Virus record (IMG/VR): IMGVR_UViG_2541047860_000009
Span: 1-33,718 of that record
Length of the DNA: 33,718 bases
Origin: a virus
Lineage: Duplodnaviria; Heunggongvirae; Uroviricota; Caudoviricetes
Strand: one strand, 5' to 3'
Shown here: piece by piece, positions 3,001 to 9,000 of the stretch
Layout: each line of letters starts with the position of its first letter
Numbering within the stretch: position 1 is the stretch's first letter
Made by a program: the position numbers

Positions 3001-6000
3001 GGAGTTACGCTCGCCGTTAACAGACAACAGGGCAGAGAACGGTGCTGTCTTTTTCAGTTTGAGAGTGGCGGTGTTATCTGCGTGACCTGGTTCATCAATA
3101 GTACCCAGGTTAAGCACACTGACGGCACGCATATTATCAGCATCGATAAAGCAGCGGGTGCCTTCATCTGCAAGATCTTTAGAATAACGGGTAAAATCAT
3201 CGATGCTGGCAGTGGAAAGCGCACCACGGAAACGGAAGCGATTTAAATTAAATTTTTCCAGATCATGAATGCGGAAATTCTCAGGCAATGCCACAGCATC
3301 GGCACCAATCTTACTGATAATTTCATTAACACCCTGAGCAGAAATAAGGGCATGGATTTGATTAATTGCGGTTGCGTCTAAGTTCTGAGACATAATAAGT
3401 CCTCACTATATAAAGATATTCAGTGATGAGATAAATAATCAGTTAATTAAAAACGATATTAACGACCTGCTGCGCGGAGTTTTCCGTCAGGTTCACCGGC
3501 AAGAGTCAGCAACTGTCCCTGGTCTTCCTGCAGAATAGTCAGGCGACCACCGCGATTGACATACATCGGCGTTTCGGTGGTGTCTTCTTCGGAAATTTTC
3601 CCGCGGTTAGTCGGGCGAACATATGAGAGTTTGTGTTTGATTTTCACTCGGTTCTCATCAAACGGTTCGATTTCTAGGTTGAGCGAGACCTTACCTTTGG
3701 TTTTCGTGTTCATCACACCGGAAGCGACTTCACTGAGAACTGCGCCGATTTTGGTTTCAAATACGCCGCCGTCCAGCTCCCCGATAAATGCCTGCACATC
3801 AGTACTGCGTTCGCTAGCCATTTTGCTGCTCCTCATCATATCGACCCTGCAAGGTCGGTTAGTTTCTCCACAAAACAGAGAAGAACACCTGCGGTGACTG
3901 CCGCCCGGATGGATTGGGTTATGAGCCCGTCGTCCGGTGATGCTCTTCTCTGTTTTGTAAAAAGGACGGTACCAGCCGGAAGCAAGGGTACAAGCTGGTA
4001 CCGCCAAGACTACACACAGCATAAAGTTGTGGTGCCGGGTGCCTCCCGGTGCCTGGCGAAGGTTGCACACCAGGCGGGTGGGTATCCACAGAAGGTCGAC
4101 TGTCAGCCTCAACCTTAACCCGCGTGCGCTGAGCCGCATTCACCACAACGCTAAGGATTCTCTCTGGTTGAAAATACTTAGCTGTTATGTGCCTGCTTTT
4201 AGCCACATCAGGCGAGGTGGACCTAGTTATTCCCCAACAACAAGGATTCGGTTAATCTGGTTATCCCCAACAACGCAAAAGGAAAAGAAATGTCCGGTAA
4301 TATCTATACGCTGTACAAATCCCACTGTGAAAATGTTGGAAAGTATCGGGGCATTGAAATCAGTGGGGTAGTGTCATCAGTCGAAATAAGCAAAGTTGAA
4401 TCAAGGGCAACATTACTTACTCTTTTGGACCTTGTCTTACATGAGCACCGGAAGAAATTCGGCACTCCCTATAATCAGTTGAATGGGAAAAAGGCTCTGG
4501 TTCACCTTATTCTGATGAAGCATCACTGGATGCCAAAACAGATTAATGAGATGAAATTTGATGAACTTCTTCTTTCAATTCAGGATGAACTCACACTTGA
4601 TAAAATAAGCGTAACCGCCCAGAAATTTTTAGATTATCGAGACTGGAGATCACAAATTCATCACTTTGATGATTTTGACGAAAATGAATGGGATCCTAAT
4701 TTGTCTGCACAATATCTAAAGTAACATCCTGTGATAAAACCGTGATTTCCTGATCCAGTTTTTTTAAGGAGTCTATTGTTTCCTGTCGATAAGACAGCAC
4801 TTCACGAAGCTGGTTTATAGCTGCCAGCTTCTTTGTCATCCACTCATAAATTTCCTCATCTGTGTAGCCAGGCGCGACGATTTTGGGTTCTGTTTTGTGC
4901 ATTTCACATCTCCTCAAGTTATCAGTTACTTGTTGATGGGGACCAGATTGTTAAAGAGCTAAGCGTCCTGTAGGGCGCTTTTTTGTTGCTAACGAATCAT
5001 CCTGGACTTCATATGCCCCAGGCGGCTACTTCGTGGGCGTCCTGCCTGTTCGTTTTTGACATTTACTGACTGCTTACGACACATGCACCGTGTTGCAACC
5101 AGATTTTGTTGTAATCCTGTAGTTGGTCTGGAACAAAAGATAAAATTAAATTGTGAGATATGCAAGTGGTATTTGCGTGATATGCAAGTTGATAGGTAAT
5201 AAAAAGCCACCTTTCGGTGGCCGATGGAAGGATATTGAGGTTAATTATGTCTCTTAAGGGTTTGAGACTGACTGATTAAGACCTTTCCAAAGACCATGAA
5301 TCGGTGTTCGTTTTCGCTAGTAATTCCCCATTCACGGTAAATCTGGTTATCAGAAATCACCAGCAGTTTGTCAGGAATCATTTGAAGTCTTTTAACGTAT
5401 ATTTTGTCATCAAAACCAAAGACATATATACCATCACCATCAAACTGATTGATGCTGACATCAACGAAGATGAGATCTCCTGGCTCAATGGTTGGACACA
5501 TACTGTCCCCACGAACGTTGATAACTTTGATGTGATTGGCTGGTCGTCCGCCGAACATTGATACAGCATTATCAGTTCTGTATTCGATGGCATGAATCAC
5601 ATCAATGACATCACCGCCCTGGATAAGGCCATTTCCCGCACTGGCACTGATATCCAGCATTTCAATACGGAACACATCCTTCACCTGCGCAACATCCTCA
5701 TTATTACTGTTTTTATATACAGTATTACTTTTGTGGGCAGAGGTAAAGAGATCAGCAATATCAACACCTAAGCTCTTGGCAATATTACTCAGTGTTTGTT
5801 CGGTAAATTGTTTTTGCTTACCCGTTTCTAAGCGCGAGATGTTCACCGCATCTACTCCTATTGCTTCAGCGAGATCGGCGATTTTCATGTTCTTCGCTTG
5901 GCGAAGTTGTCTGACTCGGTTTCCTATGTTCATGCGTTTATTACATTTCTTTATTGCGTGATAAGCAAATCAACTTGCGCAAAATAATTGCGTGAAATAA

Positions 6001-9000
6001 CATGCATAACGCGCAATATTTGGAGGGCGTATGCAATCACCATTACGAAATGTGCGTAAGGCGCATGGTTTCACTTTGCAGCATGTTGCTGCGGGTGTTC
6101 AAGTCAATCCAGCGACGTTGAGTCGTATTGAGAGGCTGGAGCAGATTCCATCTATCGAGCTTGCAGAACGTTTAGCCAATTTTTTTAAGGGTGAAGTCAG
6201 CGAAATGCAGATTCTTTATCCGGCACGTTTTCAATCTAGCCAAAACCAGAATGGGTTTAAACCACAGGAACAGGAGGTGAACCGTGGGTAAGCATCACTG
6301 GAAAGTAGAAAAACAGCCTGAGTGGTACGTGAAAGCTGTCAGAAAAACTATCGCGGCGTTGCCGGGAGGTTACGCTGAAGCTGCTGAGTGGCTGGATGTA
6401 ACAGAGAACGCTTTATTCAACCGCCTTCGTGCAGATGGCGATCAGATTTTCCCGCTGGGATGGGCAATGATTTTACAGCGCGCGGCTGGCACTCACTACA
6501 TTGCGGATGCTGTCGCACAGTCTGCTGGTGGGGTGTTTGTATCGCTTCCTGAACTTGAGGAAGTAGAGAACGCCGATATAAACCAGCGCCTGCTGGAAGT
6601 CATCGAACAGATCGGGAGTTACTCAAAGCAGATTCGTTCGGCAATCGAAGATGGGGTAGTGGAGCCACACGAGCAGACAGCAATTAATGATGAGTTGTAT
6701 CTGTCAATTTCGAAGCTCCAGGAGCATGCAGCACTGGTCTACAAAATCTTTTGCGCTCCAGAAAAGAGTGACGCCCGCGAGTGTGCAGCTCCGGGCGTCG
6801 TGGCGTTTTGTGTCTGTGGAGAAACTAACGCATGAACAGTTTAACGGCAAATAACCGTTTGTCGCAACAGCTGGTGGTCAGCGTCGCTGAACACCTGTTG
6901 TTACGGCATGAATGCAGATTACCAAATCACCTGGCTGTAAGTAACCACAGAGAACTTTACCTGACTGTGGGGGGCGAGTTGTGCAGGAACTTAACCGCTG
7001 GTTTCGTGACGGAAGAGGGCTTTATGTCCATGTTATTCGTTGGGAGCCAGAAACACAGCGCGTTATCTATCTTCGCAAAGACTACCCGCATGAGTGCTTT
7101 AGTCCTTTGTGGAAATTCAGGCGTGATTTTGTTGAGTGTGAAGGACCACCAGCACATTGATTCTGCCATTCCGGGACGTTACACTGTTCAGGCACCTTAT
7201 AAAGCGGGTGCCGGGATTGGCGTCCTGGAATTGATCAAGGCGATATATGACGCGCCAGCGTCTTTTTTATCGTCCGCATTTGCTCACATCAAAGTTATGG
7301 TGGGCTGGGCGGGGGCATCGAAAGATGCGCCGGTTTCCTTGATCACCGGTTACGCCAACCCCGTTCAGTTCACCACCAGCGAAATTGGCGTTTCCGGTGG
7401 TGGAAGTATTTCACCGATCAAGGAGGCTGCCATCATGGCTACTGTCCCAGCCCTCTCTCGTCTGAATGATGAAGACTTACATAAACTCAGTTATGTAACA
7501 ACTGCACTACGTGCTCTGCGCAAGGTAACTCTTTCGGATCCGCAGGCGCATCAGGTTCTGGTAGAAACCCTTCTTAACTTGCAGGCTGAACGTATTCGTC
7601 TGGCGGATAAGGCTAATTTTCATATTCACCGTCTCCTGAATATCAGCGGAGGGCATCGTCATGCTTAATCCGTTGATCCTCAATATTTGCCGTTTGCTTC
7701 AGCGTAAAAAAACATCAATTCCTACAGTTGGGCAGTGGTACACCACACCTGCAGGGCATGTTCTACGTGTTAGCCTGGTTGACCGTGAATGCCAGAAGGT
7801 GATTTGTGAACCGCTGGGCCGTAATTACCGCGTCAGTATGCCGCTTATAGCCTTTCGCTCCGGAAAAAACATGAAGCATCTCGGAGGTGCAGCATGAGTA
7901 TGGAGCTGATGGTTAAAGCGATGAAAATTCGAGTGGGTAATCCATTGCGAAAACTGGTTCTGATCAAGCTGGCTGATAATGCCAGCGATCAGGGGGAGTG
8001 CTGGCCCAGCTACCAGCATATTGCTGACCAGTGCGAGATTAGCAAACGTTCTGTGATGAATCATATTGCGGCCCTTTGTGAGTCCGGGCTGGTAAAAAAA
8101 GTCACCCGGAAAGGTGAAAAAGGTAACTCAAGTAATATCTATCTCCTTCATCTTGATGGTGCAGGAGATTCACTAGGGGGGAGTGCAAATAATTCACTAT
8201 CTGGTGCAGCAAATTCACCAGGTAGTGCAGGAGTTGCACCAGGGGGTGGTGCAGGAGATTCACCCAGAACCAGTCACTCTTTTGAACCAGTCAAAGAACC
8301 AGTCAATGAACCAATAGCTGTTGGTGAATCTGCTGATGAGTCTGTGCGAGTTCGTTCAAACCGACCGGAATACTCTCCGGAGTTTGAACAGGCATGGCTG
8401 GCATATCCCAAACGTGCTGGTGGCAATTCAAAATCTGCAGCCTTCAAAGCCTGGAAAGCCCGTTTGAATGAGGGGGTAACCCCCGAAACCATGCTGGAAG
8501 GTGTGAAACGCTACGCGGGCTGGGTATCTGCGATGGGTAACAGCGGCACACAATTTGTGAAACAGGCTGTCACGTTCTTTGGTCCGGATCGTCATTTCGA
8601 AGAATCCTGGGAAGTTCCTGCGGTATCTGCAGCCAGACGCGAGGACCCGTACTTCAAAGCCAGTTACGACAACGTGGACTACAGCCAGATCCCGGCAGGA
8701 TTCAGGGGGTGATCATGAGTCTTTTGAATGAAGTTCAGAAATTCATTGAAGCCCATCCGGGGTGTACTTCCGGAGACATTGCGGATGCTTTTGCAGGTTA
8801 CTCACGGCAGCGCGTTCTGCAGTCAGCAAGCAAGTTACGTCAGAGTGGGCGTGTGGCTCACCGTTGTGAAGGAGATACACGCAGACATTTCCCGCGCCTG
8901 ACTGAGAGAGCACAGGAGCCGGAACCACAACCAGTTCGTGAAACCAGACCTGTGCGCAATTTCTATGTCGGCACTAACGACCCGCGGGTGATTTTGTGCC

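Follow-up and report, generated by a model that had tools for sequence, protein, structure and literature searches.

The switch of bacteriophage lambda comprises the divergent genes cI and cro, a tripartite right operator (OR) with outer sites over the promoters PR and PRM, a left operator (OL) just beyond cI, and a self-cleaving repressor with a helix-turn-helix (HTH) and an S24 peptidase domain. The lambda cI gene has no Shine-Dalgarno (SD) sequence and shows the leaderless PRM geometry. In the current study sequence features corresponding to these, with putative promoters and a predicted leaderless start, were seen around the cI gene (5241-5933, minus strand) in a 33,718-nt stretch of viral DNA, hereafter the window (IMG/VR record IMGVR_UViG_2541047860_000009, positions 1 to 33,718), and each sequence-level lambdoid property that was tested was present in this immunity region. 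It is proposed that the 15-bp palindromes flanking cI are the CI binding sites of a classical lambda-type switch in an SfII/ST64B-type lambdoid prophage, a reading to which we assign a probability of roughly 85%.

The locus differs from lambda in several respects. Its operators are 15 bp long (TTGCG-N5-CGCAA) compared with 17 bp in lambda, the HTH of its repressor is of the XRE/434 and not the lambda type, and OL has two sites instead of three. The middle right site, OR2, is a half-site with an invariant 8-bp palindrome, and the centre-to-centre spacings within OR are 21 bp (OR3-OR2) and 27 bp (OR2-OR1), compared with 23/24 bp in lambda. The edge of OR2 lies 6 bp from the -35 hexamer of the putative PRM, so that lambda-style activation by sigma contact is not assured. 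Unlike in lambda, an N gene is missing and CII is of the CP76 type.

Among experimentally studied repressors, the nearest in sequence that was found is HK022 CI, with 42% identity over residues 19-228 that is concentrated in the C-terminal domain, and the ST64B record labels its CI homologue 'similar to HK022 cI'. HK022 is also without N. In HK022 the repressor occupies weak middle sites with very high cooperativity, and a further operator lies a long way rightward of OR. Together these properties recall the window's half-site OR2 and the fourth site present in its relatives. The HK022 immunity region had no match to the operator matrix described below, indicating a different specificity. Phage 933W, a Shiga-toxin phage with a lambda-like OR, has just two OL sites. 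Details of its switch differ from those of lambda (PMC3317979). The 933W repressor is unrelated in specificity to that of the window and was reported to be non-cooperative at adjacent sites, whereas the half-site OR2 would imply cooperativity here. SfII, ST64B, mEp460 and Stx2a_1447/WGPS2 belong to the same immunity family as the window, and have the same operators at the same positions.

The predicted operator consensus is the 15-bp sequence TTGCG-N5-CGCAA, and the sites (all strand-less) were located on both sides of cI. On the left lie OL1 (TTGTGAGATATGCAA, 5151-5165; 14.6 bits), nearest to the putative promoter PL, and the distal OL2 (TTGCGTGATATGCAA, 5173-5187; 20.3 bits), the top match in the window. 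A sequence-only reading of this DNA had placed the same 15-bp palindrome at these two positions, 22 bp apart. Its coordinates and the start-to-start spacing of 22 bp were correct, but the sites are not the same 15-mer: OL1 differs at two positions, and is weakened by a T in place of the near-invariant C at position 4. On the right lie OR3 (TTGCGTGATAAGCAA, 5954-5968; 18.0 bits), the half-operator OR2 (5975-5989), with its core TTGCGCAA at 5975-5982 and a degenerate right arm (AATT), and OR1 (ATGCATAACGCGCAA, or TTGCGCGTTATGCAT on the minus strand, 6002-6016; 17.3 bits), which was found by a 15-mer search with three mismatches allowed. The same reading had listed at least one full site here, at 5954-5968, with half-sites as neighbours. 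The full site held, and the neighbours turned out to be the full site 6002-6016 and a conserved core at 5973-5982; the TTGCG at 5988-5992 was unconserved in the family.

The window region was 98.9% identical in DNA sequence to the annotated cI-cro-cII region of Shigella phage SfII, and approximately 90% identical to mEp460, Stx2a_1447, Stx2a_WGPS2, 1720a-02, phiSTEC1575-Stx2k and several PhiR phages. In total, 23 genomic loci with repressor relatives (numbered with the prefix L) were taken, and their cI-cro gaps were aligned by the cI start codon; the alignment was gapless but for one base in one sequence. Information content was computed over 16 non-redundant family sequences, from Shigella, Escherichia, Citrobacter, Kluyvera, Klebsiella, Pantoea, Buttiauxella, Mixta, Dryocola, Proteus, Serratia and Phaseolibacter. 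Sharply bounded conserved blocks were seen at the start codon, ATTACA (5940-5945), TTGCG...GCAAA (5954-5969), ACTTGCGCAA (5973-5982), TAaTATGC (5998-6005) and ACGCAA (6011-6016). About 20 loci, drawn from some 12 enterobacterial genera and encoding repressors with the NISRLETGKQK recognition region, had the motif at unchanging positions, with OR3 at fixed columns across all 16 aligned sequences; absence from related immunity regions, which the sequence-only reading had named as evidence against itself, was not what was found. Within the operators the arms were fixed, while the five central bases and the spacers drifted, and this fits the footprint expected of a dimer-binding operator.

The same behaviour was seen at individual sites. 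In most loci two sites lie to the left of cI, just past a terminator hairpin and separated by spacers of 7-9 nt (7 nt in the window, 8-9 nt in the mEp460 group, with the arms kept), which gives a centre-to-centre distance of 22-24 bp. OL1 was kept in place as TTGCGAGATATGCAA in SfII and as TTGCGCATTATGCAA in mEp460. At the OR1 position the mEp460 group has ATGCT(C/T)ATCACGCAA, in which the arms are kept and the centre is changed. The centres of OR3 and OR1 are in effect swapped in this group relative to the window, being GCGTT against GTGAT for OR3, and GTGAT against GCGTT (minus strand) for OR1.

A symmetrised weight matrix was built from 50 distinct sites of relatives only, with the window, SfII and L007 (a Shigella flexneri locus with a 100% identical cI) left out. 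When the motif was searched for across the 33.7-kb window with this matrix, the four best matches were OL2, OR3, OR1 and OL1, all within two short non-coding stretches beside cI (about 200 bp), and five matches of at least 12 bits were found where 0.53 were expected (500 shuffles). It could be argued that the likeness between the left and right sites arose by chance, or as a by-product of -35 elements (TTGC...), and has no operator function. One arm each of OR3, OR2 and OL1 doubles as a -35 hexamer, and TTGC-N7-GCAA was not enriched window-wide (exact copies numbered 3, with an expectation of 1.4, and allowing one mismatch gave 22 where 24 were expected), so that this loose motif is no proof on its own. 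Against such an origin, apart from the matrix counts, are the conservation of both arms, including the arm that is not a -35, the persistence of TTGCG in the -35-like arms of 16 lineages with no drift toward TTGACA, and the fact that OL2 overlaps no promoter element. We regard it as extremely improbable.

Some matrix matches were rejected as operators. The match at 363-377 (13.8 bits), just upstream of the integrase gene, was judged fortuitous, and its right arm lies within a run of TGTACA repeats. Matches at 8031-8045 (9.8 bits), 4895-4909 (10.7 bits) and 5932-5946 (9.9 bits) were below the mean shuffle maximum of 11.7 bits.

The distribution of the motif among repressor types bears on its role in immunity. 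Every scanned locus with the N(I/V)SRLETGKQK helix region in its repressor had the motif, down to 40% overall identity, and paired sites of 15-22 bits were present beside the repressors of ST64B, Serratia (54% identity) and Phaseolibacter (40%). phiNP also has the operator sites; its repressor sequence was left out of the comparison. No match of at least 12 bits was found beside the other repressor types, at the loci of HK022, HK639, ZF40, mEp237, SPN3UB, YeP1, AH07, SEN34, Chris1 and Acinetobacter (30% identity), and several of these 10 motif-free loci share the flanking PL-leader sequence with the window. The motif follows the repressor and not the neighbouring modules, as would be predicted were immunity specificity set by the palindromes. 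That role had been claimed from the sequence, and the segregation of the operator with repressor type supports it.

The palindromes might instead bind Cro, or a different regulator of the phage, for example the Ash-like protein or the CII of CP76 type. Cro is an HTH_3 protein encoded beside the sites, and lambdoid Cro and CI share operators, so that the two are inseparable by sequence alone. Binding by such a regulator and not by CI is nevertheless considered improbable, as the motif stays with the CI recognition region where the rightward sequence differs past OR1 (L012, L021 and L022), and it is placed over PL, PR and PRM as the sites of a maintenance repressor should be. Activators of the CII type normally work at promoters that lie within cro or past it, and not at OL.

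The properties of the protein itself are in keeping with recognition by CI. The gene encodes 230 aa (ATG at 5933) with an XRE-type HTH and an S24 peptidase domain (Pfam HTH_3, 2.8e-11, residues 7-62; Peptidase_S24, 6e-19, residues 104-218), and its PHROG matches were 'transcriptional repressor' and 'CI-like repressor'. It was 99.6% identical to SfII CI and 82% identical to ST64B Sb38. The family had 1,164 database proteins at E <=1e-10, mostly of 230-231 aa, with hosts including Salmonella, Citrobacter, Lonsdalea, Kluyvera, Kosakonia and Klebsiella. The MNIGxRxRxLR N-terminus and the SRLETGKQK region were invariant in 12 diverse members, as were A99-G100, S144 (GDSM) and K181. By analogy with LexA and lambda CI, A99-G100 is presumably the cleavage site and S144/K181 the Ser/Lys dyad, and on this analogy CI would be a LexA-like self-cleaving repressor. 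In a PDB sequence search neither CI nor Cro had a closely related solved structure; UmuD' and a 434-derived HTH came nearest, at E ~1e-4.

Three putative promoters were assigned from position and conservation only. Each uses an operator arm as its -35 element, followed by a 17-nt spacer. PR (5975-6003, plus strand) would have its -35 (TTGCGC, 5975-5980) in the left arm of OR2 and its -10 (TAACAT, 5998-6003) at the edge of OR1, with a start at ~6010; the -10 is TAATAT, TATTAT or TAAAAT in relatives. OR1 overlaps the end of this -10 and the PR start, and it begins with ATGC rather than TTGC because the last two bases of the -10 (AT) are its own first two. PRM (5940-5968, minus strand) would use an arm of OR3 (TTGCTT, 5968-5963) and TGTAAT (5945-5940), with +1 at the A of the cI ATG (5933), and OR3 overlaps the region from -35 to -21. 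PL (5137-5165, minus strand) would use an arm of OL1 (TTGCAT, 5165-5160) and TATCTT (5142-5137), and would start leftward at ~5129-5130. OL1 spans -35 to -21 of this promoter and OL2 lies upstream of it; the same layout was present in phiNP, ST64B and Kluyvera.

From this arrangement the working of the switch can be proposed. A dimer of CI, and presumably also Cro, would bind the 15-bp operators. Occupancy of OR1 and OR2 would cover the start, -10 and -35 of PR and turn cro off, and occupancy of OR3 would cover the PRM -35 and turn off cI itself. OL1 and OL2 would cover and flank the PL -35 just past the cI terminator, so that the early-left genes would form a separate, repressor-controlled transcript. 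PRM would probably start at the first base of the cI start codon, and its mRNA would then be leaderless, like that of lambda.

The middle site is the least regular part of OR. Only the left arm of OR2 is conserved, and in the family the information content is maximal for ACTTGCGCAA (5973-5982), which contains the 8-bp palindrome and does not vary among some 12 genera. Just the first 5-6 bases of this block would suffice for a half-operator or a -35 hexamer; the full palindrome is conserved nonetheless. With the full-site matrix the OR2 15-mer scored -2.1 bits in the window, against 10.4-15.2 bits in L010, L016 and L021. Since OR2 is this degenerate, we infer that its occupancy would have to rely on cooperative binding. 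Two other placements of OR2 were rejected. For 5988-6002 (TTGCGTGAAATAACA), the second TTGCG was conserved in the closest relatives only, and no gap would be left before OR1. At 5978-5992 there is an everted palindrome (CGCAA-N5-TTGCG), 24 bp from both OR3 and OR1; it scored -42 bits and its right arm was unconserved.

Most family members have a fourth operator, TTGCGTAAnTCGCAA, ~50 bp beyond OR1 and inside cro codons 8-12. It scored 15.8-20.7 bits in L010-L013, L015, L016 and L024. At the same position (6052-6066, cro codons 8-12) the window has a relic, GTGCGTAAGGCGCAT, that scored 9.4 bits, which is at chance level. A degenerate copy (9.4 bits) was also present in L008 (Citrobacter), the nearest relative scanned, and in mEp460 no match of at least 9 bits was found at this position.

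Several observations weigh against a classical lambda-type switch bound by CI. By the full-site matrix OR2 is a non-site, the spacings of 21 and 27 bp do not allow the cooperating pair to be read, and the OR3 score is not below that of OR1, so that the order of filling is not readable from the sequence. The three promoters match the sigma-70 consensus at just 7-8 of 12 positions (PL at 7), a sigma-70 scan called no promoter within 4600-6400, and the proposed PRM -10, TGTAAT, has a G at -11, where the usually critical A is missing. In the literature searched there were no binding, footprint or transcription-start data for any family member. The SfII, ST64B, mEp460 and Stx2a_1447/WGPS2 records that were opened annotate no operator, and literature searches for the operator 15-mer and for SfII or ST64B operators returned nothing relevant. 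According to a 2025 paper, operator specificity 'remains unknown' for the LLS/mEp460_4F5 type of lambdoid repressor, which is not the type found here (PMC12315714).

The absence of an SD sequence at the cI ATG, as noted in the sequence-only reading, was borne out by anti-SD duplex energies computed on the 20 nt upstream of each start. The value was -0.9 kcal/mol for cI, compared with -9.8 for cro, -11.6 for cII and -9.3 for the first PL gene; random 20-mers from the window averaged -3.1 kcal/mol. No relative had an SD sequence at cI. Thirteen relatives had a different upstream 20-mer, and for all of these but Proteus L024 (-5.4) the energy was between +0.9 and -3.0 kcal/mol; of the 16 family sequences, 15 fell in this range. 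In 13 of the 16, TGTAAT is placed exactly 6 nt ahead of the cI ATG, and TTAAAT or TTTAAC takes its place in the rest. The six bases in between vary freely, and the register is kept across genera. Lambda PRM has the same geometry, its -10 hexamer being followed after 6 nt by the ATG. These data make a leaderless cI transcript from PRM fairly likely.

The mEp460, Stx2a_1447 and 1720a-02 records (L002, L003 and L004) annotate a 215-aa cI from the internal Met16. If translation did begin there (5888), or if PRM lay further upstream, cI would not be leaderless; besides these annotations, the G at -11 of TGTAAT and the lack of any promoter passing the scan would favour this. Residues 1-15 (MNIGxRxRxLR), however, do not vary and make up helix 1 of the HTH domain, which the 215-aa versions would lose, the Pfam match starts at residue 7, and database members mostly have 230-231 aa. 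By inspection of the minus strand between 5934 and 6030, no other -35/-10 pair with correct spacing was seen, and the TGTAAT-N6-ATG register is conserved though the intervening bases vary. An upstream PRM or a start at Met16 is therefore unlikely. From the sequence, the cI start at 5933 appears secure, and the Met16 annotation is probably a gene-caller artefact due to the missing SD sequence at the true start.

The cI gene ends in an intrinsic terminator (5195-5222, minus strand; hairpin 5205-5222), with GGCCACC-GAAA-GGTGGCT followed by TTTTTATT. The hairpin has a folding energy of -13.2 kcal/mol (z = -3.5), none of 200 shuffles folded as well, and the sequence that follows it is UUUUUAUU. The same hairpin is annotated in the SfII record as a putative rho-independent terminator, and in nearly all relatives a GC hairpin and a U-run separate the cI stop from OL, though the stems differ widely in sequence. 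The terminator of cI predicted from the sequence was thus confirmed. OL2 starts 17 nt past the hairpin. As the terminator lies before OL, it is a reasonable inference that cI and the early-left genes are on separate transcripts.

With its classical architecture the switch offers small conceptual gain. The operator specificity, which was not found in the literature searched, is common to SfII, ST64B, mEp460 and some Shiga-toxin phages. The operator consensus and promoter layout now cover an immunity group that includes the serotype-converting phage SfII, the Salmonella phage ST64B and some Stx2a/Stx2k phages of E. coli, and the consensus allows superinfection immunity to be predicted from sequence alone. 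The analysis also corrects mis-called cI starts (Met16 to Met1), and provides defined targets for the study of prophage and toxin induction.

The PL leader of the window contains a structured RNA of ~62 nt (4992-5053, minus strand; covariance-model match 4984-5064). An outer helix is formed by the pairing of 5053-5049 with 4996-4992, and a hairpin by the pairing of 5022-5018 with 5005-5001; a 27-nt core between the helices, AGGCAGGACGCCCACGAAGUAGCCGCC, is largely invariant. A 67-bp stretch covering this RNA (4991-5057) was conserved in SfV, SfIV, phiNP, AH07, YeP1-3, ZF40, ST64B, SPN3UB, SEN34, mEp237 and others, in each case without annotation. In the loci that were opened the RNA lies to the left of the repressor gene whatever the repressor type, and it was also present in a T5-like Providencia phage.

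The structure was supported by comparative analysis. In 16 sequences pairing was present in 96% of cells, against at most 46% when the partners were slid, nine pairs had changed on both sides, and none of 500 shuffles reached the observed covariation score. RNAalifold agreed on both helices. The covariance model found one copy in the window, with 94 bits, the next match having 7.9 bits, and full-length copies in 63 of 80 viral contigs containing a 14-nt core, again with strong covariation. Changes from G-C to G-U in the viral-contig copies fit the minus strand only, which is that of the PL transcript. When the PL leader was folded as a single sequence nothing stood out (z = +0.7), and the structure was seen by comparative analysis only.

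A 261-bp query comprising the RNA motif and OL (4940-5200) matched 1,531 of 5,426 complete E. coli genomes (~28%), and nearly every match listed includes the motif. Among 25 of 1,534 records (matches listed), the annotation under the motif was one 'hypothetical protein' only. An Rfam search of 4900-6100 returned nothing even at E up to 1, and a literature search for the core sequence found nothing relevant. Widespread in E. coli genomes and unannotated among the matches listed, this RNA could matter more than the operators.

The position of the RNA and the phages that carry it give some indication of its possible function. In ZF40, YeP1, AH07, phiNP, ST64B, SPN3UB and SEN34 it starts from a few to ~20 nt past the -10 of a strong promoter; in the window ~75 nt separate the putative PL start from the motif. 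No N-like protein was detected among the seven window proteins scanned against PHROGs, the first PL gene included. Phages carrying the motif have been described as being without an N gene (PMC3851460; PMC12315714), and early antitermination in N-less lambdoid phages is stated as unknown (PMC12315714). Since these phages have no N gene, a cis-acting antiterminator is an attractive idea, and the PL-leader RNA is put forward as a candidate for such an element, or for a processing element, of N-less phages.

HK022 put provides a comparison, as it too is a structured RNA (~70 nt) downstream of PL in a phage without N. Membership of the put family was considered and rejected. There was no significant alignment to the HK022 PL leader (putL), and the HK639 PL leader was, by inspection, without resemblance. 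put consists of two adjacent stem-loops without an enclosing helix, whereas the RNA described here has an enclosing helix around two hairpins, and no second copy was found downstream of PR by the covariance model in the 33.7-kb window. With no alignment to put, a different architecture and no PR copy, the RNA would not be a member of the put family.

A boxA-like sequence, GCUCUUUAACAAU (4947-4959, minus strand), occurs further down the PL leader, beyond the RNA motif, and appears to match the core of E. coli rrn boxA. A hairpin just upstream of it in the PL transcript (4961-4980) has its stronger fold on the plus strand, at -11.5 kcal/mol and with a U-run, and therefore looks like a terminator of rightward transcription converging on PL.

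More tentatively, this undescribed RNA might represent a new class of processive antiterminator, protein-independent or Nus-factor-dependent, that replaces N/nut in SfII-, SfV-, ST64B-, ZF40- and SPN3UB-type phages and in the T5-like phage. Separately, the switch might work unlike that of lambda: an invariant 8-bp palindrome serves as its half-site OR2, its spacings are 21/27 bp, and cro contains a fourth operator in most relatives. We hold both ideas with rather low confidence.

To the right of the operators, cro (6022-6291, plus strand) has an SD sequence, GGAGG, at 6022-6026 and an ATG at 6031, and encodes an 86-aa HTH_3 protein that is Cro in the SfII record. It is followed by a CP76-type cII (6284-6835, plus strand), assigned from its open reading frame (ORF) and domain matches. 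Two further RNAs scored at Rfam gathering level on the plus strand, isrK (7192-7268, 64 bits) and C4 antisense RNA (7293-7380, 82 bits), both inside an ORF of the Pfam Ash family (6832-7668) to the right of cII; the pair suggests a P1/P7-type c4-like module for secondary immunity or antirepressor control. Four TGTACA repeats (318-378) immediately precede the integrase gene (386-1609, plus strand) and may form an array of regulatory or arm-type binding sites. An STnc100-like RNA (3956-4179, minus strand) scored 43.4 bits, just below the gathering score of 47, and lies within a stretch (3459-4206) full of overlapping spurious ORFs.

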